From positions 82,630 through 146,629 of the forward strand of contig BPJB01000001.1 of assembly GCA_026004395.1 (NCBI GenBank): 64,000 nucleotides of DNA, in the 5' to 3' direction. Positions within the stretch are counted from its first letter, which is position 1. The number at the start of each line of letters is the position of its first letter. The notes beneath the pieces were generated by a model. That model was not told where the DNA came from, ran no database searches, and was given only the letters and a program-made list of their open reading frames with translations. The DNA is from Patescibacteria group bacterium. Its GTDB lineage: Bacteria > Patescibacteriota > Microgenomatia > Levybacterales > UBA12049. Both the position numbers and the translations under genes were made by a program. Below are positions 4,736 to 53,604 of this stretch, piece after piece.

Positions 4736-4844
4736 GAGGGTTAAATTTGGTGAGTAAAGATAATTTTTATATAACTTATGATAAATCTGTAATCTAGAAC
4801 GATTGACAAAGAAAGGAATTTTTACTATCTTAAGGATTGATTAT

Positions 4845-5333
4845 ATGATTAATATAATATTGAAAATTTTAGCGTTCTTTTGGCCGTTAAGACCTGTATT
4901 TGCTCATTGTGATATTCCCTGTGGTATTTATGATCCTCATACAGCACAACTTGCAGCTCATACTGTACTGCGTATGACTCAACTAATTATGACATCGAAA
5001 GTGAATAATACGCAACAGTCAATACATGATATTTCTCGGTTTACAAAAGTAAAAGAAGAACACGCAGAACTTGTGAAACACGAAATTAGAGTGCTGTGGG
5101 GAGATTATTTTAAAGAGGAGCATCTTAAAGAATATCCTCATCTTCATGATTTAGTCTTTAAAACTCTCAAACTGGCATCAAAAGCAAGACAAGAAATAAA
5201 CGAAGATGTCGCCAAAGATCTTCTTTTACATGTTCAACAAATTGCAGAAATATTCTATAAAACAAAAGGTCTTAAACCTTATCGAGTCGCATCCTATTAT
5301 CCCACTGGACTTGAGATAGTGCAATATAAATAA
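4845..5333 (+). CDS. sodN: Nickel superoxide dismutase precursor (NiSOD)
   Basis: HCDIPCGIYDP after a 20-aa leader matches the NiSOD Ni-hook HCDLPCGVYDP. AAGGA Shine-Dalgarno 8 nt upstream of ATG 4845 (the track start at 4803 is a TTG). Confidence 0.8.
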   Translation: MINIILKILAFFWPLRPVFAHCDIPCGIYDPHTAQLAAHTVLRMTQLIMTSKVNNTQQSIHDISRFTKVKEEHAELVKHEIRVLWGDYFKEEHLKEYPHLHDLVFKTLKLASKARQEINEDVAKDLLLHVQQIAEIFYKTKGLKPYRVASYYPTGLEIVQYK

Positions 5334-5626
5334 TGCTCTTTTTTGCACTTTTTAAAGTATATGGTCATAGCATGATGCCAACAATTTCTCCTGGTCAGAG
5401 AGTTGCGGTAAGTGGTATTCCCTATCTTTTTAGCAAACCGAAGAAAGGAGATATTGTCCTTATAAAAGATCTTCAAAGTAATGCCTACTTTATCAAACGT
5501 ATAGCATATATACATGCTAATACATATACTGTCCTTGGAGACAATCCTTATGATAGTAAAGACAGCAGACAATTTGGGAGAATCCATTATTCTGCAATTG
5601 TGGGAAAAGTACTATTTTATTTTTAA
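5333..5626 (+). CDS. sodX: NiSOD maturation peptidase, minimal S26 signal-peptidase-like (SodX)
   Basis: S26 motifs: GHSMMPTI (catalytic Ser), IKRIAY (Lys), GDNPYDSKDSR. 97 aa with no TM segment. ATG overlaps the sodN stop (TAATG). Confidence 0.75.
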   Translation: MLFFALFKVYGHSMMPTISPGQRVAVSGIPYLFSKPKKGDIVLIKDLQSNAYFIKRIAYIHANTYTVLGDNPYDSKDSRQFGRIHYSAIVGKVLFYF

Positions 5627-11470: not shown

Positions 11471-12610
11471 ATGCCCCAAAACAAAAAACAACTTCAAAAA
11501 CGATTCTTCACTGTAGTATTTTTTTTGTTGCTAACTATTGGTGCTTTTATATTTTATAAAGTTATTTTCTATGCACCAGTTGCTTATGAGTTGATATTTA
11601 AAAAAGATATTGAACTTAAACAGGATGCAAAAAAGAATATTAATATGCTCCTACTTGGTATAGGAGGAGGACAGCATGATGGACCACTTTTAACAGATAC
11701 AATTATTTTTATGAGTATCAATCCTGAAGAAAATAGAGTAACTATGGTGACTATTCCCAGGGATTTGTGGGTGCCAGAGTTACAGGCAAAGATAAATACC
11801 GCGTACGCTTATGCCGAGCAGAAAAAACCAGGTGGAGGTCTCATTTTAACAAAAAGAATCGTTGGAAAAATTTTGAATCAAGATATCGATTATGGTTTTC
11901 GCATTGATTTTAATGGATTTATTAGAGCGATAGATATGGTGGGTGGGATTGATATTGATGTGGAACGAACATTTGATGATTATGAATATCCCATAAGTGG
12001 AAAGGAGACAGATACTTGTGGATATGAAGGAGAAGAATTTGAAAAGAGAGCAACAGCAGAAGCTCAGCTTGAGGCGTTTCCTTGCCGCTACGAACATTTA
12101 CATTTTGAGAAAGGATATCAGCATATGGATGGAGAAACTGCACTTAAGTACGTTCGTTCAAGACATGCCAAAGGACCAGAAGGGACAGATTTTGCTCGTT
12201 CAAAAAGACAGGAAAAAGTGATTAACGCTTTTAAAGAGAAAATCTTTTCTGCAGAAACATTTCTTAATCCTATAAAACTTGTTAGCTTATACGATATTTT
12301 CAAAGACAGTATAGATACAGATATCAAACAAGAAGAGTATGCTGATTTTGTAAAATTAGCAGAGAAAATGAAAGACGCTAAAATTGAGAGTTTCGTACTG
12401 GACGTTGGAGATGATGCACAAGGCAGATCAGGACTTTTAATAAATCCCACACCTAGTGCAGAGTATAAATTCCAATGGGTGATTATTCCACGTTTGGGTA
12501 ATGGCAATTATCGTGAGATTCAAGAATATGTTTTATGCCTAGTTGAGAAGCAAAACTGTAAAATTTCTCCAACAGTGAATCCACAAGTTTCACAGAAAAA
12601 TAGTTTTTAA
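11471..12610 (+). CDS. LytR-CpsA-Psr (LCP) family cell-envelope phosphotransferase
   Basis: N-terminal TM anchor, then LLLGIGGG..DTIIFMSINP..TIPRDLWV, which is characteristic of the LCP domain. Confidence 0.8.
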   Translation: MPQNKKQLQKRFFTVVFFLLLTIGAFIFYKVIFYAPVAYELIFKKDIELKQDAKKNINMLLLGIGGGQHDGPLLTDTIIFMSINPEENRVTMVTIPRDLWVPELQAKINTAYAYAEQKKPGGGLILTKRIVGKILNQDIDYGFRIDFNGFIRAIDMVGGIDIDVERTFDDYEYPISGKETDTCGYEGEEFEKRATAEAQLEAFPCRYEHLHFEKGYQHMDGETALKYVRSRHAKGPEGTDFARSKRQEKVINAFKEKIFSAETFLNPIKLVSLYDIFKDSIDTDIKQEEYADFVKLAEKMKDAKIESFVLDVGDDAQGRSGLLINPTPSAEYKFQWVIIPRLGNGNYREIQEYVLCLVEKQNCKISPTVNPQVSQKNSF

Positions 12611-12617
12611 AGGTATT

Positions 12618-14996
12618 TTAGAATGCAGATGCTAATTTATAGATAACTGTTTCTCCACTTTGAAATACTTTTTTTCCTATTTGTTGAAATTTTTCTTTTT
12701 TTAATTGGGGGTATTTTTCTCTTTCAAGAGAGCCTAAAAAAACATATTCGACGTTATACCTTTTTAAAAGAGATTTTGTCTCTTCCAAATCATTTGATTC
12801 ATATAGTCTTCTGATATCCTCTATTCGAGGAGCAGGAATATTGTAAGTTCCTCTCCACAGCCATTCATGGACAGTCCATCCAAGAATAGTTGGCAGTCCC
12901 GTATTTGTTGATACCCGAGCATAATCTGTGTAGGAGTCTCCTTGAGCTTCAAGAATGACTGGTTGTCCATGTATATTCTTTTGTAGCCATTGAATTGCTG
13001 CAAAGTCGTGTGGATACTTTTCTTTTAGGTAATAAGTTCCGTCAAGTCCCTGATAATCAGAAGAAGTAGTTCTTGCTGTAAATGCCAGTACGTTTTGATA
13101 ATAGGAATTAATTGCAAGGTAAGGATAAATGAAGACTATAGTCAGTAATATAAAACAACTGATGAAAAAGAGAGAATAAATTAAGAGCCCTTTGAGAGTT
13201 TGGGTATTTTTTAGCTTCTGAGCAATACGAGGTATAATGTAGCCACTAGCGAGTGAGAGCATAATAAAGGATTGAAAAACAAGTTTAAACATTGTATTGG
13301 CTCGATAATGTGCAGGGTAAATATCTTTTGCATAGATTAACTCTGGAAGAAATATAAGAAAGAGAGAAAGTGTGATTAGACAAAGAATAAATTTGTCAGA
13401 CACAAGAAGTGTTTTACTTTTGCGAATAAAAAAAAGAAAAATTATTATGAAAAAGAAGAAGAATCCATAAAGAATGAGAATTTGCCACAATGGTGATCTA
13501 TCGCAATGATTTGGTTCAAAAAGAAAAGGACCAATGTTGCCGATTTGTGTGAGAAATTGAGGAGCACAGATTATACCAATACCAGAAATAAATGGTTTGA
13601 AAAAGAGTGAAAAAGGCAGAGAAAACACAAGAAATCCTCCTAGAAGAACAACTATCGGAATAATACTTTCCCCACCAACAAGAAAAACTTTGCGGATAAA
13701 ATGCTGTTTATAATGAGTTTTATTCCACTGAAGATACGTCAGTAAAAATACAGAGAGAAGGAAGTAAATGAATCCATCCCATGCATTGGTCATATATAAG
13801 ATAGCAAGCAGAAAACTAAGAAACAAAAGTGAAGCAAGATTTAGAGGAATTTTATCTGTTATTGTTTTAGATAAAAGAGAGAAATTTTTTATCTTGTATC
13901 TTTTAAATTTTGGCGCAGCATCCTTGCTAGATTGTGCAGATAAAAAGAGTGAAAGTAAGTATGCAATACTTAAGAGTACAAATGGAACATCAAGTACGTG
14001 TCCGTGAAGATCTGCCACAACCCAGGAATATATAGGAAATTCATGAATAGTATTTTTAATAAAACGCGTTGCATTAGGATACCAATATGAGTTGGGAAAA
14101 GAAAAAAATTTTTGTTGTTCGTAAGCATCACATTTGATTATCTTTGAAGTGCCTTTTTCAGTATGTTGTGTATAGAACTTTTTTTTATAACAAGGATTTA
14201 AAAGTGCAAATTCTAAATTCCAGAAAGGAACAGGTTTTTCATTTTCATAAGGTTTGAAAAAACTATAAATAGTATGCAGATTTCCGGAAAATGTAACAAG
14301 AAGAGCACTAAGAATTCCTGCAGCTAGAATATTGAACAATCTTCTTTTTTTATCTTGAATAAAAGAAGAGAGTGTTATGCCTATTGAGAAGCAAGCGGTG
14401 AATGTGAGAGCAACTAGTGAAGCCAACATGAGATTATAAGTATAATTGGCTGGTATTAGGGATATTTTTGTGAGTATGGCTGTTGTTAGATGTCCAAAAT
14501 AATAATAGTTAATGGTAAAGGGAGTAAGCCAGATATCTTTTGGAGGAAGGTACTCACTTCTTAGTAGAGAATTGATGAATCCATAATCCATAAATTTTTC
14601 CAATCCATATATTTCAGGTGCAAATCCTCTAATGTATGACCAAAATACAAGTATGCAAAAAAATAATATTTCCTCAAATACAAAGATTTTCCAATATTTT
14701 TTTATTATTTTCGTGAATGAAAAGCTATGAAATTTTTTAACTAATATTATTCCTTGTGTGAGTAGAATAAGAGAGAAGATTATGATAATTGAAAGAATAG
14801 AAAATCTTAAGATATGAAGACTGCTCAAAAGTAATACTAAATAAGAAATAAGGATGATACTTAAAATCTTTGAGAAAGCATAACCTCGATCAATGAAACG
14901 TGCAAAAATAAAGGTAGTGAGAGGCAGTGAACCCATCCCTAGAATAAAGAGTAAAAACCACCATTGAATAACGCGCAAAAAATCAGCGAGTAACAT
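12618..14996 (-). CDS. large integral membrane protein with YYYFGH motif (Chlor_Arch_YYY/DUF2298-like), possible GT-C-related
   Basis: 792 aa with more than 15 TM helices, a YYYxG motif (INYYYFGHL) and a ~130 aa soluble C-terminus. Overlaps the upstream HAD gene by 14 nt. Confidence 0.5.
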   Translation of the reverse strand: MLLADFLRVIQWWFLLFILGMGSLPLTTFIFARFIDRGYAFSKILSIILISYLVLLLSSLHILRFSILSIIIIFSLILLTQGIILVKKFHSFSFTKIIKKYWKIFVFEEILFFCILVFWSYIRGFAPEIYGLEKFMDYGFINSLLRSEYLPPKDIWLTPFTINYYYFGHLTTAILTKISLIPANYTYNLMLASLVALTFTACFSIGITLSSFIQDKKRRLFNILAAGILSALLVTFSGNLHTIYSFFKPYENEKPVPFWNLEFALLNPCYKKKFYTQHTEKGTSKIIKCDAYEQQKFFSFPNSYWYPNATRFIKNTIHEFPIYSWVVADLHGHVLDVPFVLLSIAYLLSLFLSAQSSKDAAPKFKRYKIKNFSLLSKTITDKIPLNLASLLFLSFLLAILYMTNAWDGFIYFLLSVFLLTYLQWNKTHYKQHFIRKVFLVGGESIIPIVVLLGGFLVFSLPFSLFFKPFISGIGIICAPQFLTQIGNIGPFLFEPNHCDRSPLWQILILYGFFFFFIIIFLFFIRKSKTLLVSDKFILCLITLSLFLIFLPELIYAKDIYPAHYRANTMFKLVFQSFIMLSLASGYIIPRIAQKLKNTQTLKGLLIYSLFFISCFILLTIVFIYPYLAINSYYQNVLAFTARTTSSDYQGLDGTYYLKEKYPHDFAAIQWLQKNIHGQPVILEAQGDSYTDYARVSTNTGLPTILGWTVHEWLWRGTYNIPAPRIEDIRRLYESNDLEETKSLLKRYNVEYVFLGSLEREKYPQLKKEKFQQIGKKVFQSGETVIYKLASAF

Positions 14997-15549
14997 AGGG
15001 AGTATATTTTACTATTTCTGCAAGTTGAGTGATAGGAATAATATTGTAAAGAGAATGTTTATCTTTATTGTCGGTATCGGACGTTAGCCAAAAAAACTGG
15101 GTTTTTTTATGGTAGGGTGCTATATATCGCAATAAATGCAGATCGTCATCAATATAAATATCAAGATGTAATTTTTTTAATATCTCATTTTTAAAAATAT
15201 GGGGTTGTTTGTCTTCAAAATTAAAATACATGTCATCAAATAATGTGTCTAGTTTGTATTTTTCTAAAATAGATTTGGTTCTTTTTTCTAAAAAACTAAA
15301 TCGGCTAGAAATAAGAAAAAGTTGATTATTAGCACGCGGAATTTTTTTCACGACATCAATATTTTCTTTGATAATGGGACGAAAAATAGAAAGATGAAAA
15401 AAACTTCTGAGATATTGTTCAGGAAGAGTGGGGATTCTATAAATAAGTTCACCATTTGATTTTTTTTTATAAATTCTATCAATAAGTTGATCAGGTATAA
15501 ATGGAGGATAGTCAACAAAAATTTTATCAAGATCAAAACCAATTCTCAT
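14983..15549 (-). CDS. HAD-superfamily phosphatase-like protein
   Basis: IGFDLDKI (HAD motif I, DxD), LISSR (motif II Ser/Thr) and IYIDDD (motif IV). Confidence 0.45.
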   Translation of the reverse strand: MRIGFDLDKIFVDYPPFIPDQLIDRIYKKKSNGELIYRIPTLPEQYLRSFFHLSIFRPIIKENIDVVKKIPRANNQLFLISSRFSFLEKRTKSILEKYKLDTLFDDMYFNFEDKQPHIFKNEILKKLHLDIYIDDDLHLLRYIAPYHKKTQFFWLTSDTDNKDKHSLYNIIPITQLAEIVKYTPYVTR

Positions 15550-15551
15550 AT

Positions 15552-16589
15552 TTAAAGTTTAGTTAATAAATTGATTAATTTAAAGTTCCACCCTACTCTA
15601 TGAGTAGTTCCGGTTTTATGAAGTAGATTGTTCCTATGTTTTTTGTACCATAAATAACTTTCAAGCAAAAGGTCTTGGTTTGATTTTTTCGGATGCCACT
15701 GCAAAAGTTTTTCTGCTTTTTCTATAGAAACATAAGATGGAACAGGAAGTGTTTTATAGTGCCATTCTGAGAGAGGTGAAAGATTAAGTGTTTCAAGAAT
15801 TTTAAGTATCATCTGGGATGGTCTAATAGGAAGTCCTGTTATCTTTGATGATGATTTATCATAACGGATAAGGTATTGAAGATCTTTTCTCCATGTCTGA
15901 AACACTTTTGCTCCTAAGTTAAAGATCTCATTTTCTACGCTACTGGTTGCAGCTTTATATACAGCATCAACAACATCTGATACAGCCAGTAGTTGGTATT
16001 TATTTTTACCATTGCCAAGTAAAAAAACACGACGGCCAGAGTAAATTGCTTCAAACCAGAGAGTAAAAACACCCAAACGTTCAGGCCCAAGAAATGTCTT
16101 TGGACGAAGAATATTAATTGAGAGTCCTTTCCGCATGTAATCTTGACAGAGTCTTTCTGCCAAAACTTTTGATTGTCCGTAGTATCCAATTGGATTAAGG
16201 GGACTTTCTTCTTTTTCCGGAAGATTTTGTGGTACTCCATAAACTGCCGTTGAGGAGATATAAACAAATCTTTTTATCGAATGTGTAAGGGCAGCATCAA
16301 GGACAACCTTCGTTCCATCAACATTGATACTGAAAATTTTTCTTTTTTTACGTAGAATCGGGAGTGCCGCTGCTGCATGCACTACATGAGTACAACCCTT
16401 CATAGCCTGCAATACACTTTTTTTGTTCCTAACATCTCCTTTGATTACACTGACTTTTGAATGAAGATCTTTTGCCTCAAGAGGAGCAAGATCAAAAAGG
16501 ACCACGTCAAAGCCCTCATGAGAAAATTTTCTTGCCAAATGGATTCCTAGAAAACCTGTACCTCCAGTGATTAGAACTTTTTGTTTCAT
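15552..16589 (-). CDS. NAD-dependent epimerase/dehydratase (SDR family, nucleotide-sugar modifying)
   Basis: ITGGTGFLG Rossmann motif and a YxxxK region (YGQSK). Confidence 0.85.
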   Translation of the reverse strand: MKQKVLITGGTGFLGIHLARKFSHEGFDVVLFDLAPLEAKDLHSKVSVIKGDVRNKKSVLQAMKGCTHVVHAAAALPILRKKRKIFSINVDGTKVVLDAALTHSIKRFVYISSTAVYGVPQNLPEKEESPLNPIGYYGQSKVLAERLCQDYMRKGLSINILRPKTFLGPERLGVFTLWFEAIYSGRRVFLLGNGKNKYQLLAVSDVVDAVYKAATSSVENEIFNLGAKVFQTWRKDLQYLIRYDKSSSKITGLPIRPSQMILKILETLNLSPLSEWHYKTLPVPSYVSIEKAEKLLQWHPKKSNQDLLLESYLWYKKHRNNLLHKTGTTHRVGWNFKLINLLTKL

Positions 16590-16594
16590 AGAAC

Positions 16595-16627
16595 ATCATT
16601 GTACAATGATTTGTCTTGAAAAGACAA
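16595..16627. promoter_or_regulatory. perfect 16-bp palindrome ATCATTGTACAATGAT plus adjacent 7-bp stem hairpin, 5 nt upstream of the epimerase start
   Basis: Read directly: atcattgtacaatgat at 16595-16610 and ttgtctt-gaa-aagacaa at 16611-16627, inside the 86-nt gap between the GT-C gene and the epimerase gene. Confidence 0.4.
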
Positions 16628-16675
16628 TAAAAATATTTTTAAGAATTCTAAAATAGGAGAATCTATTTTTCGATT

Positions 16676-18367
16676 TTAAACATTTTTGCTGTTTTTATTG
16701 TCATTTAGAAAAATAAAATATGTTGTACGTAATTTTTCTTTAATTATTTTTTCTGGGTAATAATTCACATTTTTAAAAATAAGTACCTTGGGATGGTCAT
16801 ATACTTGAAATGTTTCTTCTGTCAGATCATCGTTGATAACAATTCCCAAAATTTGAGGATAAGAGGAAAACTCAGCAATTTTTTGGTATCCTAATTCACC
16901 GCTAAAAAGAAGCTGATAGTAGCGTTGTGTAATTGGATATTTCTTGGGAAGATGAAGTAACGTTCCATAAAGTCTGCGTGTTGTTATAAAAATATAGTCA
17001 GCTTGTGAGAGTTCTCTCGCATAATATTCTATTTTAGAAGCATTATCAGGTTCATAGATAGTAAGTTGCCTAATCTGATATTGATCTGGTAGTTTATTAC
17101 CTAAGGGAATAGGCAATCCATCATCCCAATGTTCGGTTAAGATTTTGGATCCAGGTGATATATGTTCATAAATCCATTTTGATGCGCTGATACGTGTTTG
17201 TTCTCTTACATAAATTGAAGAAAAAGCAACCGCCCAAATTATATTTATTGTCAGAAAAAAAACAAAAATAATTATCCCCAGTATCTTAAACTTTTGCTGT
17301 ATCCATGCAAGAGAGACAGACGCAGCAATCAGCAAAAAGGGAATAATTGGTACCATATAGCGTATGAACTTAGCGTACCATGCTCCCACATATGCAAAGT
17401 ATAAAAGAGGAAAAATAAATAAAATACAAAAGAGAATATTTGGTTTTTTGAAAAATTGATAGACAAGATAGATGATCCCCAAAATACTCATCACAAAGAC
17501 TGGACCTATTTGCCAAAAGAGATTTTTTAGTTGAAAAAGATATGGTTTTGTATCACTAAATTGTAAGGTATAAACAACGCGATTTGTTCCCAGAACTACA
17601 CTATTCTCAAATTCCATTGATTCTCTAAATTTATTCCATTTCAAAAAAGTATAGGGTGAGGAAAGTGTAAAAATAAAAACTGCAATACTTAAAATCATAA
17701 TTAAAAATAAGAAAGCTTTCTTAATGGAAAGTTTTTTTTCTTTGAGTAAGATGCCTAGTGTTATTAGAGGAACAATAGCGAAAGAGATTCCTGTTGTCTT
17801 AGTCGCTGCGGATATTCCAAGCAATATACCCATCCACAAAACAAGAGAAATTTTATGTTTTTTATAAAAATTAAGAGCAAGAAGAATCAGTGTAACAATA
17901 GATAAGGTAAGAAAATTCTCCGTGATCGAGAAGTGAGCTGTCTGTATTGATGAGACAGTGAATGTGTAGAGGATAGATGTTATTAATGCTACTTTCTCTT
18001 GAAATACAATTCTTGTGACAAGATACAAAGGTATCAGAGTAAGAGTTGAGAAAAAAGCAGAGAAATGTCTTCCTAACAAATTAATAAATGCCCAGTCAGA
18101 GGAAAGCAATGGATTGGAAAAGATAAAGGAAAATATGTCAGCAGTAATTTTATAAAGATAAATCAGAAATCCTCCATAAGCATAAAATTGAGGATCAAGT
18201 TGTGAGAAAAGTTTGATATGGGAAACTGCATTGGCTATATTGCGCTCATCTGGATGAAAGAAATGTCCCTGATCCCAGTTGAGGTTATTAAATCGCAGGA
18301 AGAACGCACTCAGCATCATTATAAAAAACAGGAATTTTGATCTTGTCCTCAGAGAGTTATTTTGCAT
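16676..18367 (-). CDS. GT-C-fold membrane glycosyltransferase-like protein (PMT/ArnT-related, TIGR03663-like), paralog A
   Basis: N-terminal loop motif FFHPDERNIA with the DE dipeptide of PMT/ArnT-type GT-C enzymes. About 11 TM helices and a ~170 aa C-terminal soluble domain. Confidence 0.55.
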   Translation of the reverse strand: MQNNSLRTRSKFLFFIMMLSAFFLRFNNLNWDQGHFFHPDERNIANAVSHIKLFSQLDPQFYAYGGFLIYLYKITADIFSFIFSNPLLSSDWAFINLLGRHFSAFFSTLTLIPLYLVTRIVFQEKVALITSILYTFTVSSIQTAHFSITENFLTLSIVTLILLALNFYKKHKISLVLWMGILLGISAATKTTGISFAIVPLITLGILLKEKKLSIKKAFLFLIMILSIAVFIFTLSSPYTFLKWNKFRESMEFENSVVLGTNRVVYTLQFSDTKPYLFQLKNLFWQIGPVFVMSILGIIYLVYQFFKKPNILFCILFIFPLLYFAYVGAWYAKFIRYMVPIIPFLLIAASVSLAWIQQKFKILGIIIFVFFLTINIIWAVAFSSIYVREQTRISASKWIYEHISPGSKILTEHWDDGLPIPLGNKLPDQYQIRQLTIYEPDNASKIEYYARELSQADYIFITTRRLYGTLLHLPKKYPITQRYYQLLFSGELGYQKIAEFSSYPQILGIVINDDLTEETFQVYDHPKVLIFKNVNYYPEKIIKEKLRTTYFIFLNDNKNSKNV

Positions 18368-18368
18368 A

Positions 18369-19991
18369 TTACTTTTTTATTTTATAAATCATCACAACAG
18401 GCCGATCAAATATATTTGCTGTTTGCTCATATGCGAAAATTGGATCTCCAAGATAAAGAATTTTGCAGTAGAGATCACATGGTGTCTGATATAAAAGATC
18501 ATATGCTGTGGGTTGTGAAATAAGGGATGTATAAAATTCATAACCCTTGGGAAAATTTCTTGCATCTGCAACTCTTGTCTTAAAAAGTCTTTGACTAGGG
18601 AGAATAATATAATCATTTGTTTTTAAAAGATTTGATAAAGTATTGTCATAAGATTTTGACAATGTTTCTTCGAGATCATAAAAATTAAAAAGTTTGATTG
18701 ATGGAAAATAGGAGTTAAAAGGAAGAATACCTAAATCATAGACTTCACTAATTATTTTTGCATTCTGCGGTAGATGTTTTTTTGCCCACTCAGCAGCCAT
18801 TATTCTACTGTCAGGTGTTAGAAGAACGGTTTGTAAATAAGAATAAGCAAAAATAAATCCTATTATGAAAGAAACGACTGCAAAAGAAATCAATACTTTT
18901 GATTTCATTTGTATATGTTCAACGTATTCCGATAATGCACAGGCAATAATAAGATAGATAAAAGGAATAGTTGGAACAAAATAACGAGTCCATTGAGTAA
19001 AAAGAAATGTTTGAGAAAGAAATAATAACAAAAAGAATGCTATTAATAGCATATACGCTATATTTTTTCTTTGAATAGCAAAAATAAACAAATATGCAAA
19101 CGATACTAAAAAAACAATAACTATAAAAGGATTCAGAAGAAACGGATATATTTTTAAAAAAGGAAAAACAATGGGAGTAGCTGATAGAAATTCTCCTGTA
19201 TAAAAAACGCGAATCCCCCCCAAAGCAACAGATGATTCATATTTTATACTTCCTAAAAATGAACTGTAGTCTAGAAATGTATAAGGATTGGTTGAGAGAA
19301 AAATTGCACTGGATAGGAGAATTGTAAAGAGGATGAAGAATATAGAAGAAATAATAGATATTTTCTGTTGTGATTTTTGTTCAATGATTATTACCATGAT
19401 CAATAGTGGTAACAAAATAATGCTTGATATCTTAAAAGAAATGAGGATTCCAAATGTAATTGCTATTCCCACTAAATATCTTCTCTTGTGTGTTTTTATA
19501 TAAAGAAGAGATAAAAAGAATAAAAGAAGTGTAAAATAGGTAAGCCACATTTCGTATGTTCCAAAATGAGCGAACTGGATGAGACCAACGCTTACTGTTC
19601 CTAAGATAGTTGCTAATATCCCGCTAATGTTATTCTTGAGTATTTTTCCAGTGCTATAAAGAAGAAGTAAGAGCAGTAAAGATAACAAAGATGAGAAAAA
19701 TCTGAGAGTAAGAATGGCGTTTTCAAAAGAAACATCATTTTGCCAAGTTTGGTTTTTGATTAGATTAAAGAGTAGAGCAGCAAAATATGAGAGATATAAA
19801 GGAAGACTTCCATAAGCAAAAAAATGAGGATTCATTTGATCTGGGAAAAGAAGTTGGTCGATACTCGTTGCGATATTGCGTTCATCCGGATGAAAGTAAA
19901 ATGGTTTTCCCCAATCAAGATGTGTAATACGAAAAGCTGCTCCAATAATAATAAGTCCCACAAGTAAAATACTAGGTGTAATGTATCTCAT
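18369..19991 (-). CDS. GT-C-fold membrane glycosyltransferase-like protein, paralog B
   Basis: Same FHPDERNIA motif and topology as paralog A. Separated from paralog A by 1 nt. Confidence 0.55.
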   Translation of the reverse strand: MRYITPSILLVGLIIIGAAFRITHLDWGKPFYFHPDERNIATSIDQLLFPDQMNPHFFAYGSLPLYLSYFAALLFNLIKNQTWQNDVSFENAILTLRFFSSLLSLLLLLLLYSTGKILKNNISGILATILGTVSVGLIQFAHFGTYEMWLTYFTLLLFFLSLLYIKTHKRRYLVGIAITFGILISFKISSIILLPLLIMVIIIEQKSQQKISIISSIFFILFTILLSSAIFLSTNPYTFLDYSSFLGSIKYESSVALGGIRVFYTGEFLSATPIVFPFLKIYPFLLNPFIVIVFLVSFAYLFIFAIQRKNIAYMLLIAFFLLLFLSQTFLFTQWTRYFVPTIPFIYLIIACALSEYVEHIQMKSKVLISFAVVSFIIGFIFAYSYLQTVLLTPDSRIMAAEWAKKHLPQNAKIISEVYDLGILPFNSYFPSIKLFNFYDLEETLSKSYDNTLSNLLKTNDYIILPSQRLFKTRVADARNFPKGYEFYTSLISQPTAYDLLYQTPCDLYCKILYLGDPIFAYEQTANIFDRPVVMIYKIKK

Positions 19992-19992
19992 A

Positions 19993-21264
19993 TCACTCTT
20001 GAGTCATAATGCGTGCGGCTTTGGTTCCTATGGCAACTGCGTAGTTTGTTCCCCGATCCCATGGATATACTTGCTGCATATTGGCAAGGTAGATATTGGG
20101 AAGAGGAGTTTTGATAGAGGGAACAAGTTTGGAATAGTTAGGAGGGATTATTGGTTGAGCAAAATGTGCAGCAAATTTTTCAATAGCAATGATATTATCT
20201 GTGATTTGAGGATTAATGCGTTGTAAATAAGGAAGATAGATTTTAAATATTCGCTTGCCCGTGTATGAAAAAAATGGATGAGTTGATGGGAGATATTTCC
20301 CAAGATATAAGAGATGTTCGTTATTATAGTATTTTTTATCCACAAAATTTGTATGTTCTATAATCGCCATAAGAGGAGCTTCTCTATCACAAATACTAAG
20401 CCAATATGTCCCATCCTGAAGAAAAGGTTTTTTCATTCTAACAACTAAATTGATTGCTCCAAGACCATGCAGCGAACTAAGTTTTTCTTTATAACTTGCT
20501 GTTATATCTGGTAAAAGATTGAGCAAATTTGGAGAAGGTAGTGTCACCAGAATTTTATCGAAGGTATATTTTTCTAAAGCGGTTGTGAGGTGAATGCCTT
20601 GAGCTGATAATTGAAGTGATAAAACAGGAGTAGCATAGTGAATAATTGCTCCTTGTTTTTTTAAATTGTCAGCTAATGCTTGGGCAAAACGCAGAAAACC
20701 TCCTTTAGGATAGGCAAGTGTTGCTGTTCGTTTCCTAATTCTTGCCCAGAACCATGCAAGAGAAATGTTGGTATAGTATTCTCCAAATTTGTTTATTAAC
20801 TGTGGTTCCCAAATTGTTGCAAATGCTTGATGGCCCATTATTTTTTCCAAGAAGGTAACTGCATCAATACGTTCTAGCAATTGCCAATAAGGGTTGTAAC
20901 GCAAAAACGCAAGGGTGGTTGCCATGCGTATTCGTGAAAGAAAAGAGATCTTAGGGAAAGTAAGTACTGTTAGTGGGGAATCAAACTGGTAGATCGCATT
21001 GTCAACGAATACAGATGTTTTTGGTCGTTTGATTAATACAGAGTGTTTTAATTCTTTTGCAAGTTGTAAAACTGCATCATCATTTGTAAACCAGTGATGG
21101 TAGTGTTGTTCTAGTGTCCATTTCCATCTTGGATGTTGAAATCCAATAGCTAATCCACCAGGACTTCTATCTTTTTCAAAGATAGTAATACTATGTCCTT
21201 TTTTTATGAGTGCAAAAGCAGCAGCAAGACCTGTAAATCCAGCTCCTATAATTGCTATCTTCAT
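19993..21264 (-). CDS. FAD-dependent oxidoreductase (amine-oxidase/CrtI/PPO-like fold)
   Basis: IIGAGFTGLAAAF dinucleotide-binding motif, then EKDRSPGG. Confidence 0.7.
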   Translation of the reverse strand: MKIAIIGAGFTGLAAAFALIKKGHSITIFEKDRSPGGLAIGFQHPRWKWTLEQHYHHWFTNDDAVLQLAKELKHSVLIKRPKTSVFVDNAIYQFDSPLTVLTFPKISFLSRIRMATTLAFLRYNPYWQLLERIDAVTFLEKIMGHQAFATIWEPQLINKFGEYYTNISLAWFWARIRKRTATLAYPKGGFLRFAQALADNLKKQGAIIHYATPVLSLQLSAQGIHLTTALEKYTFDKILVTLPSPNLLNLLPDITASYKEKLSSLHGLGAINLVVRMKKPFLQDGTYWLSICDREAPLMAIIEHTNFVDKKYYNNEHLLYLGKYLPSTHPFFSYTGKRIFKIYLPYLQRINPQITDNIIAIEKFAAHFAQPIIPPNYSKLVPSIKTPLPNIYLANMQQVYPWDRGTNYAVAIGTKAARIMTQE

Positions 21265-22670
21265 AATGAAGCTTTGCCACGGCTTAGTACAAAGAGGAGT
21301 AGTCCTATACCAGCCATGAGTGTTGTAATTATACCTGAGAATACCACCAATGAACTACCCGGTGATTCTTGTGGCGGAGGAAGAGTTGGTGTAGGAGAGA
21401 GATCAATCGTTGGTGTGATGGAGGCAGGAGTACTCTCAACAGTAGGTAGCGGGGTATTTGTTGGAGTAGGTTGTTGGGTGGGTGTTGGTGTTGGTGTATT
21501 TGTAGGAGTTGGAGTTGGTTCTTGAGGAGAAACAGAGGGTTCTGTAAATTGACTACCTTGAGCATATACTGTGAATGATCGTTTAATAATTCTTAAAATG
21601 CCATTTTCATCTTTTGTTTTAATCGTGATAGTATGCTCACCTGGCGCAAGTTTTTGTTGAGGCCTGAATGACCAAACACCTCTGGTATCTGCTTTGATTG
21701 TTGTTTTAATTGTAGTTTGTGAATTAATTTCTATTTCAACCTCTGAACCAGGTGGTGCTGTTCCTTCAAATTTTGGTTGTTGATCACTAAAAGCTTCTTG
21801 ATTTTTGGGAACAAGAATGCGTGGTTCGGTTGGTAATGCCTCTGTTGCAGTAAAGCTGGGAAAACTTTCTTTTATAGTTTGTGATGCTGATTCGGATGAT
21901 AAATTATTTGATAGAGGTTCAAATGAAGTGGTGAAATCATATGTGTTGGATAAGGTTATTTGAGGAACGGGATTAATCTGCGATGCAAGAAGAGATACTC
22001 TTGACTCATAATTTGAGCTTTTGACGAGTAACTTTATAACGGAGTCATCTTTAAGTTGTAGATAAGAGGTATAATCTTTTGTTCGAATTGCATTCAATGG
22101 CAACACAAAAGTTCCATCTTTTTTTGTTAGAGTTGAGATGACTTGTGCATTTTCACTGACTAAAAAGATAAGAATATTGTTATCGCTGGTACCATCAGGA
22201 TAAACAACCTTACCTACAATAGGGGGTTGAGGTGGTGGATTATCAGAGAGAGGAGAAAGCGTTTGAACTATAAATGGCATATCTTTATCTAGAAAAGTTT
22301 TATCCGCTGAGGTAATAGTGAAGTAATATTTGGTATTGGGCGAAAGATTTCTAACAGTAATATGATGTGTGATGTATGGCTGTGGTGTACCTGATTGCTG
22401 ATCGCGATCATCAAATGCAACTTTCCCAAGAGATGTGTTTTCTCCGTAAGAGAGTGTTCCTATAACTGGTTCTTTAGTAACATAGGAGACAGTGAAAGAT
22501 GTATCTGATAAATTAGTGATGCGAATATCCTCAGGTGCATACTCCGGTGCTGCTTTTGTTAGGAAAAGAGCGCCGCTGTTAATAAGCCAATTTAGTGAAA
22601 AAAGTCCAACTCCAAGAAGTATAAATCCAAGAATTGTTGGTATTCTTTTATTCCAGAGTGATCTGTTCAT
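21261..22670 (-). CDS. cell-surface protein with fibronectin-III-like domains, Pro/Thr-rich linker and C-terminal TM anchor
   Basis: N-terminal signal anchor, FN3-like segment (NLSDTSFTVSYVT), the linker PTPTPTNTPTPTPTQQPTPTNTPLPT, and a C-terminal hydrophobic helix plus SRGKASL tail. No LPxTG. Confidence 0.5.
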   Translation of the reverse strand: MNRSLWNKRIPTILGFILLGVGLFSLNWLINSGALFLTKAAPEYAPEDIRITNLSDTSFTVSYVTKEPVIGTLSYGENTSLGKVAFDDRDQQSGTPQPYITHHITVRNLSPNTKYYFTITSADKTFLDKDMPFIVQTLSPLSDNPPPQPPIVGKVVYPDGTSDNNILIFLVSENAQVISTLTKKDGTFVLPLNAIRTKDYTSYLQLKDDSVIKLLVKSSNYESRVSLLASQINPVPQITLSNTYDFTTSFEPLSNNLSSESASQTIKESFPSFTATEALPTEPRILVPKNQEAFSDQQPKFEGTAPPGSEVEIEINSQTTIKTTIKADTRGVWSFRPQQKLAPGEHTITIKTKDENGILRIIKRSFTVYAQGSQFTEPSVSPQEPTPTPTNTPTPTPTQQPTPTNTPLPTVESTPASITPTIDLSPTPTLPPPQESPGSSLVVFSGIITTLMAGIGLLLFVLSRGKASL

Positions 22671-22999
22671 TGTGTTGTTTCTCCTTGAGTTTCTGCTTCA
22701 ACTGTAGCAATAGGCTCAGCAGGAGGTATTGGAGTAATAGTAAGAGAAGCTTCTTGAGAACTGATCTGATTATCAGTTTGTAAATAATTCAAATTGGGGG
22801 TTATTACCTTGCGTTTTTTTAGACGGTTTAGAACTTCTTTATTAAATGATGAATTTATGGGTAGGATTGTTAAGCTTTGAGATTCAGTGATAGTTGTGGC
22901 TACTCTTTTGTTATAGATAGTAAATCCAATCCAAGCGAGTATTACTACAAAAGATGGAATAATAAGATAAATAAGATTTTGGTACTGCTTTTTGTTCAT
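22667..22999 (-). CDS. small single-pass membrane protein (possible pilus-assembly accessory, PilP-like position)
   Basis: 110 aa with an N-terminal TM helix and Pro-rich C-terminus. Tightly coupled between the PilO-like and surface-protein genes. Confidence 0.3.
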   Translation of the reverse strand: MNKKQYQNLIYLIIPSFVVILAWIGFTIYNKRVATTITESQSLTILPINSSFNKEVLNRLKKRKVITPNLNYLQTDNQISSQEASLTITPIPPAEPIATVEAETQGETTQ

Positions 23000-23001
23000 A
23001 T

Positions 23002-23622
23002 TTATAATTTATAATATGCCTGAGCGTTAATAGTCATTTTTAGAGTACTACTTCCTTCTTGTAAACGGATAATTGTAATATCCTTAACAAGGATAATTCT
23101 GTCAAACGCTATTAGATCATTGTAGAAACGTTGAAGTTGATCATATGTTCCTTCAACTACGATTACAAAGTTAAATGACTCAAGTTTTGCTCCAGGATTT
23201 CTTTTCAGAAGATCTATCTGTTGCAGGTTGATGCTACTTGTGCTAATTCCCGCATTGGAGAAGAGTGTTTGTATTTGGCCAACTAACTTTACCACTTCAG
23301 GATTTTGAGGAATAGCAGCAAAGATTAGAGGCAGTTGAGGGTTCAACAAGTTATATTCTTGCTGGAGTAGTGTCATGTTTTTAATTTTTGTTTCAAGTTG
23401 CGTATGGATGAATTTTCTATCCTCTAAGCTTTTTTGAAGCTGTGCTATAGTGGACAAAGTGGGAGTAATCGCAAAGATCCCAAAAAATGAGAAAGCAAAG
23501 AATGTGAGGATAAGAATGATATACATTTGCGTTTTTTCATTTTTAATATCAGGTAGAGAACGTATATAGGAAAGATATCTCTTTTTGGATAGTTCTTGAA
23601 AAAGTTGTTTATTGATTTTCAT
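23002..23622 (-). CDS. PilO-like membrane protein
   Basis: About 200 aa: short cytoplasmic N-terminus, one TM helix, coiled-coil segment, then a globular domain. Confidence 0.45.
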   Translation of the reverse strand: MKINKQLFQELSKKRYLSYIRSLPDIKNEKTQMYIILILTFFAFSFFGIFAITPTLSTIAQLQKSLEDRKFIHTQLETKIKNMTLLQQEYNLLNPQLPLIFAAIPQNPEVVKLVGQIQTLFSNAGISTSSINLQQIDLLKRNPGAKLESFNFVIVVEGTYDQLQRFYNDLIAFDRIILVKDITIIRLQEGSSTLKMTINAQAYYKL

Positions 23623-23624
23623 AA

Positions 23625-24254
23625 TTATCTTGCTTGCTCAATTGGGATAGGTTGTCTTAAAGGTAAAGACTCAGGACTTTCTGTTTTCAGACGAGCAGAT
23701 ACTATAGCTGAAAATACAGCGCGTGATGTTTGATTTTCAATTCGATCAATACTCACTGATTTGATCGGCGCATATGATCTAAGAGCGCTGATAAATTCAT
23801 TAAGACCACTAACAGAATTAGCTGTAATATCCATACGGACAGAAGCTGAAGTGACAGTAAGAGATGTGAAACTAACCTTTCCTGATGCGAAATCAACAAT
23901 TGACGTAAGAGTTGTTGTTACATCAGAAGATGACCTATCTAATCTGTCAGCCTCAGCAAGTCTTTCTTGAAGTGATCTGAATGATGCTTCTTGGGGTTTT
24001 AATGCCTCAACAATTGCTTGTTTGGCTTTAATTTTGTCATGCAGATCAATGAGCTGTCTATCTAGTGTAAAGCGATAGAGAAAAGCTGCAAGCGCAATGG
24101 TTTCTGTAAGAATGACCAGAAATCTGCCTCCTGTAATCGCCCATTGTATAAATACTTCCCAGGAAGCATTGCCCTGACGTTTAAGAAGATTGATAGATAG
24201 ATATTGTGCATTATTTTTTTGCATTGCAGTATTACTCCAACACCAAAATGCCAA
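23625..24254 (-). CDS. PilN-like membrane protein (INLL motif)
   Basis: N-terminal SINLLKRQ matches the PilN INLLP motif. Followed by one TM helix, a coiled coil and a periplasmic domain. Probable start at ATG 24224. Confidence 0.5.
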
Positions 24255-27691: not shown

Positions 27692-28870
27692 ATGGCACGA
27701 AAAAGAATAAGTGAGTACAAAGCAAAAATGCTTCTTTTTGAAGCATTAGGTCTTCCCTATCAGGGAATACAGGTTAGAAATTCTGATCTATCTTTTTATA
27801 CTTCTCTAGATAATACCAAGACCTACGTTGTGAAGGTTGATCAAGGAGTGAAAAAACGATTTAAGCAGGGACTTATTCATTTAGATATTCACTCTGAAAT
27901 GCTTTTAGATTCAATAGAGGACTTGCGAAACAAAGGTTACTCTCAGTTTCTGATTGAACCATATTACAAGCACAAAGCAGAAGATGAGCGCTATCTTGCA
28001 CTAGAGCGAATCAGAGAAGGAATAGCCGTTTATGTCTCAAAAAAGGGAGGAATAGATATTGAAGAACAACAAAACTTTGTTCAACAATTTATTATTCCTC
28101 AAGATACCTATCAGGAAGTAGCCAAATATATTGGAATAGATGCCAAATTGGTTGAAAAAATTATAAAAGTAATGGATAAGTTCTATATCTCCTTTCTTGA
28201 GATAAACCCACTAGTTGTTAAAGAGAACAAGCTTTTATTTTTAGATCTTGCAGTTGAAGTAGACAGTGCAGGATCGTTTTTTGTAAAAGATGCGTGGAAT
28301 GAGAGAGATTTTATAGATTATGCTGTAGAGCATACAGTTGAGGAAGCGGTAGTTGAGGAATTATCCACTAGAAGTCAGGCTTCTTTTAAACTTGTCGTAC
28401 TTAATCCCAATGGATCTATTTTCATGCTTCTTTCTGGAGGTGGAGCAAGCATTGTCCTTGCTGATGAAGTATATAATCAAGGATTTGGAAAAGAACTTGC
28501 AAATTATGGAGAGTACAGCGGCAATCCCAATGCAGAGGAAACCTATATCTATACCAAACAGCTTTTGAGCTTATTATTAAAGTCAAAAGCACGAAACAAA
28601 ATTTTAATTATTGCCGGTGGAGTTGCTAATTTTACTGATATTCGAATTACATTTAGAGGTATTATTCAAGCGCTTACTGAGGTGAAGCATGAGCTTCAAA
28701 AACAAAATATTAAGGTGTATGTCAGGCGAGGCGGACCATATCAGGAGGAAGGACTTGCAATGATGAAAAGCTTTCTTGAAAAAGAAAAACTCCTTGGTGA
28801 CGTATCTGGACCCGAGATGGTACTAACCGATATCGTAGGAGAAGCTTTGCGCTTTCTAAAATCAGAATAG
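27692..28870 (+). CDS. aclB: ATP-citrate lyase small (beta) subunit, ATP-grasp/SucC-like
   Basis: Long identity blocks with the N-terminal half of human ACLY and Chlorobium AclB: FLIEPYYKH, ELANYGEYSGNPNAEETY, ILIIAGGVANFTDIRITFRGI, VYVRRGGPYQEEGL. Confidence 0.8.
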   Translation: MARKRISEYKAKMLLFEALGLPYQGIQVRNSDLSFYTSLDNTKTYVVKVDQGVKKRFKQGLIHLDIHSEMLLDSIEDLRNKGYSQFLIEPYYKHKAEDERYLALERIREGIAVYVSKKGGIDIEEQQNFVQQFIIPQDTYQEVAKYIGIDAKLVEKIIKVMDKFYISFLEINPLVVKENKLLFLDLAVEVDSAGSFFVKDAWNERDFIDYAVEHTVEEAVVEELSTRSQASFKLVVLNPNGSIFMLLSGGGASIVLADEVYNQGFGKELANYGEYSGNPNAEETYIYTKQLLSLLLKSKARNKILIIAGGVANFTDIRITFRGIIQALTEVKHELQKQNIKVYVRRGGPYQEEGLAMMKSFLEKEKLLGDVSGPEMVLTDIVGEALRFLKSE

Positions 28871-28909
28871 TTTAAATTTTAAAAATCAAATATTTAAGAG
28901 ATTTAAATT

Positions 28910-53595: not shown

Positions 53596-53604
53596 AATCG
53601 AATA

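Follow-up and report, generated by a model that had tools for sequence, protein, structure and literature searches.

The question raised by this locus is which reaction two adjacent and similar membrane proteins might catalyze, and whether they do so as partners. Their genes, gtcA and gtcB, lie in a stretch of 64,000 nucleotides from a Patescibacteria group bacterium of the Levybacterales (contig BPJB01000001.1, positions 82,630 to 146,629), which is called the window in the following. The gene products A and B share the motif HPDE, after which we name their family of GT-C glycosyltransferases. As a whole, the best explanation is that the pair consists of HPDE GT-Cs that belong to a module with a flavoprotein and a DUF2298 protein, use a lipid-linked donor, possibly a pentofuranose, and include B as an accessory enzyme; we regard this as fairly probable. 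The elements of the pair are as follows (ORF, open reading frame; AF2, AlphaFold2).

18369 to 19991, minus strand: gtcB, B-type HPDE GT-C glycosyltransferase of 540 residues (ORF; PMT_2 match at 30 bits; orthogroup P0121-P0240)
16676 to 18367, minus strand: gtcA, A-type HPDE GT-C glycosyltransferase of 563 residues (ORF, AF2 model, Foldseek)
19875 to 19895, minus strand: FHPDERN motif in protein B, residues F33-N39, in which D36-E37 are the predicted catalytic acids of outer loop 1
18239 to 18259, minus strand: FHPDERN motif of A, F37-N43; D40-E41 lies at the N-terminus of helix 39-50 in outer loop 1

A first-pass annotation, made from the nucleotide sequence, had described two adjacent ORFs with one nucleotide between them, and both are present on the minus strand. 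The junction of gtcB and gtcA reads TAA-t-ATG with its 1-nt spacer; that of the preceding flavoprotein gene and gtcB has the same layout (TGA-t-ATG), and stop and start codons are thus coupled along flavoprotein-B-A. The sequence FHPDERNIA is common to both proteins, as had been quoted; its context is GHFFHPDERNIANAV in A and KPFYFHPDERNIATSI in B. Paralogy, which had been proposed as well, was borne out by pairwise alignment: A and B are 31% identical over ~549 residues (BLASTP, E = 2e-45) and collinear from the N- to the C-terminus. That both contain the motif is a matter of homology and not of chance, because HPDE was found in every full-length family member of the related loci that is readable by regular expression, and because D40, E41, R42 and N43 are invariant in an alignment of 75 A- and B-type sequences. 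Distant forms from Chloroflexi and Acidobacteria keep HPDE in the versions HLHPDERQ and FFHPDERA.

The 75-sequence alignment was also the basis for an AF2 model of A, which reached a pLDDT (predicted local distance difference test) of 91.6 and a pTM (predicted template modelling score) of 0.91. In this model, the first transmembrane (TM) helix comprises residues 8-26, and a helix formed by residues 39-50 starts with D40-E41. Model and hydropathy agree on 11 TM helices that are followed by an alpha/beta C-terminal domain of ~175 residues. Of the architecture given by the first-pass annotation, the N-terminal TM helix and the soluble C-terminal domain therefore stand, whereas the ~11 further helices have to be corrected to ten. 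In GT-CA enzymes, the catalytic base is located on the first of two helices of luminal loop 1 (PMC13503287), and the DE motif of this loop is a hallmark of GT-C enzymes, mutation of which inactivates Pmt1 (PMC8698208). The model supports the proposal that the Asp-Glu pair of the HPDE proteins occupies the position of this base in the first extracytoplasmic loop, as the invariant pair opens helix 39-50 right after TM1.

The orientation of this loop was deduced from two kinds of evidence. The density of Lys and Arg per residue, averaged over the 75 sequences, is 0.32 in the six predicted cytoplasmic segments versus 0.056 in the outer loops. Furthermore, two independent natural fusions (P0047 and P0096) contain a cytoplasmic flavin adenine dinucleotide (FAD) domain directly before TM1. 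Charge bias and fusions agree with the claim that the DE motif faces outward, and support a predicted topology in which the N-terminus is inside and both loop 1 and the C-terminal domain are outside.

The pattern of conservation points to the same side of the membrane. All 50 positions that are conserved in both paralogue types are located in outer loops, in the C-terminal domain or at TM edges, and none in a cytoplasmic loop. Among the conserved outer-face residues are Q142, H145 and E150 in loop 2, K190, E254 and Y266 in the long loop 4, R336, and E412, D415 and G417; the latter three belong to E-x-[WY]-D-x-G, a conserved element of the C-terminal domain in the HPDE family. The 22 type-specific positions are likewise all outside, 13 of them in the C-terminal domain, where B-type proteins contain two conserved cysteines. 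The identity within types is 54% for A and 48% for B. Since the outer-face positions conserved throughout the family are kept in both types, both copies look competent; judged by these sequences, A and B are probably both catalytically active and differ on the substrate-facing side.

With regard to the fold, the model of A was compared to the PDB by means of Foldseek. The top 48 matches were all GT-C enzymes with a probability of 1.00, 31 of them at E <= 1e-3. AglB was found with E = 1.2e-9, and yeast and human STT3, ALG9 and PglB were also among the matches, as were ALG12 (TM-score for the target, TMt, 0.60) and ArnT (5f15; E = 8e-7, TM-score for the query, TMq, 0.48). Pmt4 was matched and Pmt1-Pmt2 partially; AftA (E = 1.3e-3), AftB (E = 3e-3), Emb (E = 5e-3 to 0.2) and AftD followed. 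The GT-C fold that had been claimed for the pair is in agreement with this outcome of modelling and structure comparison, which supports that A and B belong to the GT-C(A) structural superfamily. The TM-scores of the model are ~0.5 to all GT-C families, and there is consequently no single closest one.

A more specific classification was not obtained from sequence comparison. In Pfam, the window proteins pass only the generic model PMT_2 (PF13231), A with 35.2 bits and B with 30.0 bits. Neither A nor B matches PMT (PF02366) even at E <= 10, which some orthologues pass (P0108, 37.3 bits), and neither has a Pfam match to MIR or PMT_4TMC. Bacterial Pmt is not known to contain MIR either, and the missing MIR domain therefore weighs mainly against an analogy to eukaryotic PMT1/2. 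The motif WWDYG is absent: A reads EHWDDG and B EVYDLG, and E, D and G alone are invariant. The cut-off of STT3 (PF02516) is not reached by A, which has no match, or by B (E = 0.73); it is passed by the A-type orthologues P0055 (33.9 bits), P0108, P0107 and P0046 (27-34 bits versus a cut-off of 24.5). Similarly, neither window protein matches Glyco_transf_22 (PF03901), whose cut-off of 23.8 bits is passed by P0363 with 26.6 bits and by the B-type orthologue P0225, which reaches 29.5 bits across positions 2-375 of the 414 in the profile. Sequence searches against the PDB with A, B, P0225 and P0055 yielded no GT-C match, and the best match of a family profile was a weak one to ArnT (5ezm, E = 0.51). 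A test for kinship to Emb and Aft failed, as the structural matches to these enzymes are weaker than those to oligosaccharyltransferases (OST), ALG enzymes and ArnT; judged by gene context, a comparable mode of action is conceivable. An HPDE-like motif may also occur in PIG-Z/SMP3; a literature look-up turned up nothing.

Because different members cross the cut-offs of PMT, STT3 or Glyco_transf_22, the HPDE proteins constitute a separate GT-C(A) family, which is outside GT39, GT66, GT22 and Emb/Aft by the specific tests for these groups. Its signature consists of [FL]HPDE[RN]x, Q-x-x-H-x4-E and E-x-[WY]-D-x-G. The filing of the pair as PMT/ArnT/STT3-type enzymes in the first-pass annotation is not supported as it stands, given the match to generic PMT_2 only, the lack of PF02366, MIR, PMT_4TMC and WWDYG, and the lack of a sequence match to any solved GT-C structure. 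Public records label the GT-Cs of such loci only 'GT39' or 'ArnT-like', and these labels say more than is known. A weak match of B to the NCBIfam model NF047440 (LA_3751/LA_3752 family; E = 1.3e-4, 21 bits) leads to putative glycosyltransferases of Leptospira; the family name joins two consecutive locus tags, which suggests further adjacent paralogues.

The database proteins P0001 and P0121 are identical to A and B. A and B each have their own orthogroup, mostly from Levybacteria and other Microgenomates; members of the first share 50-60% of their residues with A, those of the second 45-50% with B, and ~28% are identical between the two types. The motifs [YFL]FHPDERN and PxF[FY]AYG were used for a scan of genomes, one for each species, and at least 559 coding loci were identified, some of them in Chloroflexi, Acidobacteria, Binatia, Thermodesulfobacteriota and Auribacterota. 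When 1.84 billion representatives were searched with a profile, 3,346 proteins passed E <= 1e-30; at E <= 1e-3 there were 30,319, a set that certainly takes in other PMT_2-type GT-Cs. For the comparison of gene neighborhoods, 86 unique loci were used, namely the window, 80 loci from the scan (two duplicating contigs already present) and seven found via individual proteins. In a neighbor-joining tree, clade A contains Microgenomates sequences, clade C the HLHPDERA-type sequences including forms from outside the candidate phyla radiation (CPR), and clade B has a sister group D. The GT-C content of the loci is:

A alone: 41 of 86 loci
C fused to DUF2298: 20 of 86 loci
B and C: 13 of 86 loci
D and C: 5 of 86 loci
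B and A, the window included: 4 of 86 loci
B or D alone: none of 86 loci

The B-type gene sits upstream of its A- or C-type partner, and in all four loci that were picked via B orthologues, the partner GT-C follows directly downstream. The duplication that gave rise to A and B is old, and B is an accessory paralogue that always accompanies a core enzyme; it is an add-on partner because A occurs alone in 41 loci and B and D are always accompanied. As A so often stands alone, an obligate heterodimer of the PMT1/PMT2 type is not a property of the family; the first-pass annotation had named a heterodimer like PMT1/PMT2 and two sequential sugar additions as the two possibilities. No fusion of an A-type with a B-type gene was found among the best 150 representatives. 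The long two-domain matches in this set combine an HPDE GT-C with another PMT_2 GT-C (P0363, P0372), with an unassigned membrane domain (P0361) or with DUF2298 (P0499).

In the window, the pair is embedded in a string of genes with the following members (SDR, short-chain dehydrogenase/reductase; HAD, haloacid dehalogenase; LCP, LytR-CpsA-Psr).

19993 to 21264, minus strand: FAD-dependent oxidoreductase (the flavoprotein) of the protoporphyrinogen oxidase (PPO)/phytoene desaturase (PDS)/monoamine oxidase (MAO) structural class, 423 residues (Pfam Amino_oxidase; PRK07233, 390 bits)
15552 to 16589, minus strand: extended SDR of the NAD-dependent sugar epimerase/dehydratase type, 345 residues (Epimerase PF01370, E = 2e-44; weak HpnA and GalE matches)
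14983 to 15549, minus strand: 188-residue protein with HAD-phosphatase-like motifs (DxD D6/D8, S81, K120, DDD 134-136)
12618 to 14996, minus strand: DUF2298/Chlor_Arch_YYY polytopic membrane protein, 792 residues (PF10060, E = 8e-97; TIGR03662, 520 bits)
21261 to 22670, minus strand: surface protein of 469 residues with N-terminal TM helix, fn3/Pur_ac_phosph_N-like and Big_13 domains, Thr/Pro-rich linker and C-terminal TM anchor
22667 to 24254, minus strand: upstream genes, namely a PilN-like ORF of 209 residues, PilO of 206 residues (PF04350, E = 2.9e-13) and a 110-residue ORF
11471 to 12610, plus strand: LCP glycopolymer-to-peptidoglycan ligase (PF03816, E = 5e-33), convergent with the DUF2298 gene

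The most constant companion of the HPDE GT-Cs is DUF2298, which is present in 79 of the 86 loci and, in other phyla, occurs as a fusion with them. In 17 loci (20 in the tally by GT-C content), both form a single polypeptide of 1,340-1,750 residues, often with a C-terminal NHL propeller. The flavoprotein was found in 58 loci and is fused to the GT-C in two. Flavoprotein, HPDE GT-C(s) and DUF2298 thus constitute a conserved module that includes the pair and was absent from the first-pass annotation. The extended SDR (23 loci) and the 188-residue gene (21 loci) are optional and co-vary. The surface protein with its Big_13 domain is syntenic in 45 loci and the LCP ligase in 31; with respect to the locus, LCP ligase and FemAB are equally syntenic. 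In Levybacteria, the gene order is pilN-pilO-orf-Big_13 protein-flavoprotein-GT-C(s)-(SDR-HAD)-DUF2298, with convergent LCP and TIM genes; in Gottesmanbacteria and outside the CPR, flavoprotein, GT-C and DUF2298 alone stay together. PilN and PilO were also called in the syntenic loci L002 and L086, and in the window the end of the surface protein gene overlaps the start of the flavoprotein gene by 4 nt.

The AF2 model of the flavoprotein (pLDDT 89.4) resembles protoporphyrinogen oxidase (2ive, E = 2.5e-25), plant phytoene desaturase (5mog, TMq 0.84) and monoamine oxidases in Foldseek searches. An assignment as UDP-galactopyranose mutase was rejected, as the match (19.9 bits) is confined to the dinucleotide-binding motif and the mutase is absent from the top 50 structural matches. 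DUF2298 was considered as a GT-C homologue; the hhalign result (probability 17%, E = 1.4e-3, collinear over 372 columns) is suggestive and insufficient. The 188-residue protein has no Pfam or NCBIfam match; its motifs are invariant in seven orthologues, and from these motifs it reads as a HAD phosphatase.

Several observations concern the structure of these loci. Between gtcA and the SDR gene lies an AT-rich spacer of 86 nt (16590-16675, minus strand) with a short inverted repeat (TTGTCTTTTCAAGACAA) and a promoter-like TTGTCT-18-TACAAT; by these features, SDR, HAD and DUF2298 genes may form a separate transcription unit. A promoter/terminator scan of the locus was not above shuffled expectation. 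Towards the C-terminus of the Big_13/fn3 protein, a long Thr/Pro-rich linker (PTPTPTNTPTPTPTQQPTPTNTP...) leads via SPGSS into a hydrophobic helix with an RGK tail, and this end resembles a sorting-signal or PGF-CTERM-like anchor after a linker of the O-glycosylation type; a similar PT-rich protein is encoded in L049 (4765-5634). In L050, L056, L067, L068 and P0499, which are not from CPR, the HPDE GT-C with or without DUF2298 has a C-terminal six-bladed NHL/SGL beta-propeller, presumably an outer-face binding domain. In the Levybacteria locus L085, an RVT_1 reverse-transcriptase gene (4416-5525, minus strand), probably a group II intron or a retron-type element, is located between the genes for flavoprotein and B-type GT-C. 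L049 (DATMWB010000003.1, labelled Candidatus Methanoperedens) and many loci of 'uncultured Gammaproteobacteria' show Microgenomates synteny (Big_13, GT-C pair, DUF2298, UvrD, FemAB) and look mis-binned or mislabelled.

Hints to the sugar donor come from the relatives. In nine of the 86 loci, a UbiA-family gene stands beside the HPDE GT-Cs, and the best NCBIfam model for these genes is decaprenyl-phosphate phosphoribosyltransferase (DPPR synthase, Rv3806c type). The UbiA protein of L063 scores 234.8 bits (NF008977, cut-off 234), the others 170-215 bits, just under the cut-offs; all other UbiA subfamily models remain below 70 bits. Four Shapirobacteria-like loci have the order UbiA - D-type GT-C - C-type GT-C - SDR - PAP2 phosphatase - DUF2298. 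The order in L063 is UbiA - DprE1-like - classical SDR (DprE2-like) - HPDE GT-C::DUF2298; here, the DprE1-like protein matches NF053785 over its full length with 440.9 bits (cut-off 500), and the SDR matches PRK07102 with 341 bits and the DprE2 model with 165.8 bits. Among the 86 loci, true DprE1- and DprE2-like genes occur in L063 only. L061 unites UbiA, a HAD-like gene, SDR, flavoprotein, GT-C and DUF2298, and L044 contains GT2, GtrA, UbiA and two HPDE GT-Cs. These gene sets follow the logic of the mycobacterial decaprenyl-phospho-arabinose route and of pilin arabinosylation by TfpW. From the enzyme class, we assume with high confidence that the donor of the pair would be a sugar linked to polyprenyl phosphate. 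Polyprenyl-phospho-pentofuranose is the most likely candidate because the relatives cluster HPDE GT-Cs with DPPR-synthase-like UbiA, a phosphatase and, once, DprE1/DprE2; the assignment of ribo- or arabinofuranose to the pair itself is tentative, and we see it as a real possibility somewhat short of even chances. A polyprenyl synthetase gene in the window (52540-53658, minus strand) could supply a lipid carrier.

It is plausible to assume the following sequence of events. The polyprenyl-phosphate-sugar would be made on the cytoplasmic face of the membrane and flipped, flavoprotein, SDR and HAD protein contributing the oxidation, reduction and dephosphorylation steps of its synthesis at the window locus. 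On the outer face, D40/E41 of A (D36/E37 in B) may act as the catalytic base that activates the acceptor, onto which one sugar would be transferred. B might extend what the core enzyme (A here, a C-type protein elsewhere) has made by a further linkage of another kind; alternatively, B might pair physically with the core enzyme. Candidate acceptors are an envelope glycan that the neighboring LCP ligase would attach to peptidoglycan, and a surface or pilus protein whose gene lies just upstream. Our confidence in any acceptor assignment, including that of the Thr/Pro-rich surface protein as a candidate, is low.

A number of findings weigh against this scheme. A scan of the ORFs and a tblastn search revealed no gene for DPPR synthase/UbiA, GT2 or GtrA in the 64-kb window. 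Mostly, UbiA and flavoprotein occupy the same slot in different loci and occur together in L061 only; moreover, many loci possess the flavoprotein without SDR and HAD gene. Enzymes of the PPO/phytoene desaturase/MAO class are known for the dehydrogenation of C-C and C-N bonds in hydrophobic substrates and not for the oxidation of sugar alcohols; given this structural class, the substrate of the flavoprotein may be the lipid carrier or another compound. The flavoprotein of the window is PPO/PDS-like and not a DprE1 of the vanillyl-alcohol oxidase type, and its SDR is of the extended nucleotide-sugar type and not of the classical DprE2 type. In Foldseek, the model of A is nearer to OST, ALG9/12 and ArnT than to the arabinosyltransferases Emb and Aft. 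Finally, the sample of 86 loci is biased towards similarity to A.

A wider version of the same idea sees in HPDE GT-Cs, DUF2298 and flavoprotein a phylum-spanning machinery for an envelope glycan or glycoprotein with ribo- or arabinofuranose, named for Patescibacteria, Chloroflexi, Acidobacteria, Binatia and others. DprE1/DprE2 would then have a non-orthologous replacement in the flavoprotein, either by itself or together with the extended SDR; the flavoprotein would be physically docked to the GT-C, and the pairs B+A and B+C would be heteromeric transferases comparable to EmbA-EmbB. In this full extent, the idea is doubtful.

Other explanations have to be weighed against the proposed lipid-linked pentofuranose route with B as an accessory enzyme. 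The one that comes nearest is a TfpW-like system, in which pentofuranose chains of the D-Araf type are polymerized and placed directly on type IV pilins or the neighboring surface protein instead of on a wall polysaccharide. Most Levybacteria loci indeed follow pilN-pilO-orf-Big_13 with overlapping stop and start codons. TfpW, too, combines an N-terminus in the cytoplasm with 11 TM helices and a large C-terminal domain in the periplasm, it needs homologues of Rv3806c, DprE1 and DprE2, and DPPR-synthase genes adjoin HPDE GT-Cs in nine loci. However, none of the genes beside the GT-Cs of the window was identified as a pilin gene, other lineages keep DUF2298 and flavoprotein but lose the pilus neighbors, and LCP ligase and FemAB are just as syntenic. 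Compared by description, TfpW moreover contains a DDX motif and a TPR domain instead of HPDE and an alpha/beta domain. We thus rate this system as rather unlikely, and an obligate A-B dimer of the PMT1/PMT2 kind as less likely still. Such a dimer would transfer mannose from polyprenyl-phosphate-mannose to Ser/Thr of secreted proteins, for which the upstream Thr/Pro-rich protein and pilins would be candidates. It would be in line with the PMT_2 matches of both proteins and the PF02366 matches of some orthologues, with the DE motif in loop 1, with the 1-nt junction, which suggests equal expression of A and B, with the location of pilN/pilO and of the gene for a membrane-anchored, Thr/Pro-rich surface protein in this gene string, and with Pmt4 and Pmt1-Pmt2 among the Foldseek matches. 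Yet A and B themselves fall short of PF02366 and have neither MIR nor PMT_4TMC; the match to Pmt1-Pmt2 covers ~266 columns with a TMq of ~0.33 and is weaker than those to AglB, STT3, ALG9/12 and ArnT. In addition, A-type genes are single-copy in 41 of the 86 loci, which means that the family does not need a heterodimer, no polyprenyl-phosphate-mannose synthase (GT2) is encoded in the locus or window, and the module occurs without pilus or Big_13 neighbors in Gottesmanbacteria and non-CPR phyla.

Two further alternatives have even lower probabilities. It is very unlikely that the HPDE proteins are distant STT3/AglB relatives that glycosylate proteins with an oligosaccharide assembled beforehand on a polyprenyl-diphosphate carrier, with E-H-W-D-D-G in the role of WWDYG. 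AglB (E ~1e-9, 650-780 aligned columns) and STT3 are the best Foldseek matches, A-type orthologues such as P0055 pass the Pfam cut-off of STT3 (33.9 versus 24.5 bits), and the invariant E412, D415 and G417 follow the last TM helix by ~25-30 residues, a placement similar to that of WWDYG. On the other hand, WWDYG itself is replaced by HWDDG in A and VYDLG in B, AglB and STT3, with TM-scores of ~0.5, do not exceed ALG12, ALG9 or ArnT in this respect, both window proteins fail PF02516 (B with E = 0.73), and the locus lacks genes for the assembly of lipid-linked oligosaccharides. That one copy is a catalytically dead scaffold or regulatory subunit is the least probable explanation of all and quite improbable in absolute terms. 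Paralogous GT-C pairs can specialize, and B-type genes never occur alone. All 50 conserved outer-face positions, among them HPDERN, Q142/H145/E150, K190, E254, R336 and E412/D415/G417, are nevertheless present in both orthogroups, and the identity within types is similar for A (54%) and B (48%). The preferred explanation remains that of two probably active HPDE GT-Cs with a lipid-linked, possibly pentofuranosyl donor.

Patescibacteria (CPR) are abundant, mostly uncultured episymbionts whose envelope chemistry is essentially unknown. The locus is among the most syntenic envelope loci in Microgenomates and encodes up to three GT-C-like membrane proteins. A tandem pair by itself is unsurprising for GT-C biology, as embCAB and PMT1/2 are precedents; new is that an uncharacterized family of GT-Cs is part of a conserved module which is linked by fusions and brings together unexpected partners. 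A literature search on DUF2298, Chlor_Arch_YYY, PRK07233, the HPDE motif and GT-C enzymes in Patescibacteria gave nothing relevant within the collection of papers covered. The module, its breadth across phyla and the link to DPPR allow for a concrete and testable hypothesis on CPR envelope chemistry. If a pentofuranose were indeed transferred, chemistry of the arabinan or ribofuranan type, which is the target of ethambutol and of DprE1 inhibitors, would extend far beyond Actinobacteria, and DUF2298 would gain a function.

Elsewhere in the window, three further genes or gene pairs deserve mention. Two adjacent genes with ATP-citrate-lyase domains (27692-30703, plus strand) encode Citrate_bind and ATP-grasp domains, then CoA-ligase and Citrate_synt domains; such an enzyme is unexpected in a reduced Patescibacteria genome of ~1 Mb. 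A nickel superoxide dismutase (Sod_Ni, E = 2e-43) is encoded at 4803-5333 (plus strand), and the neighborhood of the syntenic locus L003 ends with a gene for an Fe/Mn superoxide dismutase. A GH18 chitinase-like gene lies at 32081-33175 (plus strand); such a gene is also near the locus in L084.

How do the HPDE proteins compare with known systems? With the GT-C(A) enzymes AglB/STT3/PglB (GT66), ALG9/ALG12 (GT22), ArnT (GT83) and PMT (GT39), they share the polytopic fold with its conserved N-terminal TM module, an acidic residue on the first helix of outer loop 1 and, according to the model, an extracytoplasmic active site and a C-terminal soluble domain. They differ from these enzymes by their own signature and by the lack of a sequence match to solved GT-C structures, ArnT being best with E = 0.51.

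The mycobacterial arabinan system comprises Rv3806c, the phosphatase Rv3807c, DprE1/DprE2, EmbA-EmbB/EmbC, AftA-D and an LCP ligase. As here, several paralogous GT-Cs are encoded in one locus and an LCP ligase next door, and HPDE relatives likewise adjoin DPPR-synthase-like UbiA, a PAP2 or HAD phosphatase, and an FAD enzyme plus SDR. EmbA-EmbB (PDB 7bvc, among the Foldseek matches) is a precedent for a heterodimer of tandem GT-C paralogues. However, the structural kinship of the HPDE GT-Cs with Emb and Aft is distant (E ~1e-3 to 0.1), and the window differs by its PPO/phytoene-desaturase-like FAD enzyme, its extended GalE-like SDR and the lack of UbiA.

TfpW of Pseudomonas aeruginosa Pa5196/PA7 is a GT-C that arabinosylates pilin and interacts with DprE2 (bioRxiv 10.1101/2020.04.19.049825). 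It needs homologues of DPPR synthase, DprE1 and DprE2, and its biosynthetic enzymes contact the GT-C (bioRxiv 10.1101/2020.04.19.049825). These contacts are comparable to the flavoprotein::GT-C fusions of the HPDE family. Both kinds of protein have the N-terminus inside, 11 TM helices, a large outer C-terminal domain and a link to type IV pilus genes. In contrast to the HPDE proteins, TfpW, again compared by description, has the DDX motif and the TPR domain, is encoded right after pilA and both polymerizes and transfers as a single enzyme.

In the three-component glycosylation systems of Gram-positive bacteria, a GT2 enzyme makes C55-P-sugar, a GtrA-type flippase translocates it, and a GT-C such as YfhO decorates an envelope polymer on the outer face. 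The related locus L044 with GT2, GtrA, UbiA and two HPDE GT-Cs resembles this set, whereas the window lacks GT2 and GtrA, and flavoprotein and DUF2298 are not part of such systems. Finally, the GT-Cs of the yeast Pmt1-Pmt2 heterodimer and Pmt4 homodimer are paralogues with a DE motif in loop 1, as are A and B. Some PMT subfamilies work with a paralogue and others alone, and the gene pattern suggests that the same holds for the HPDE family.

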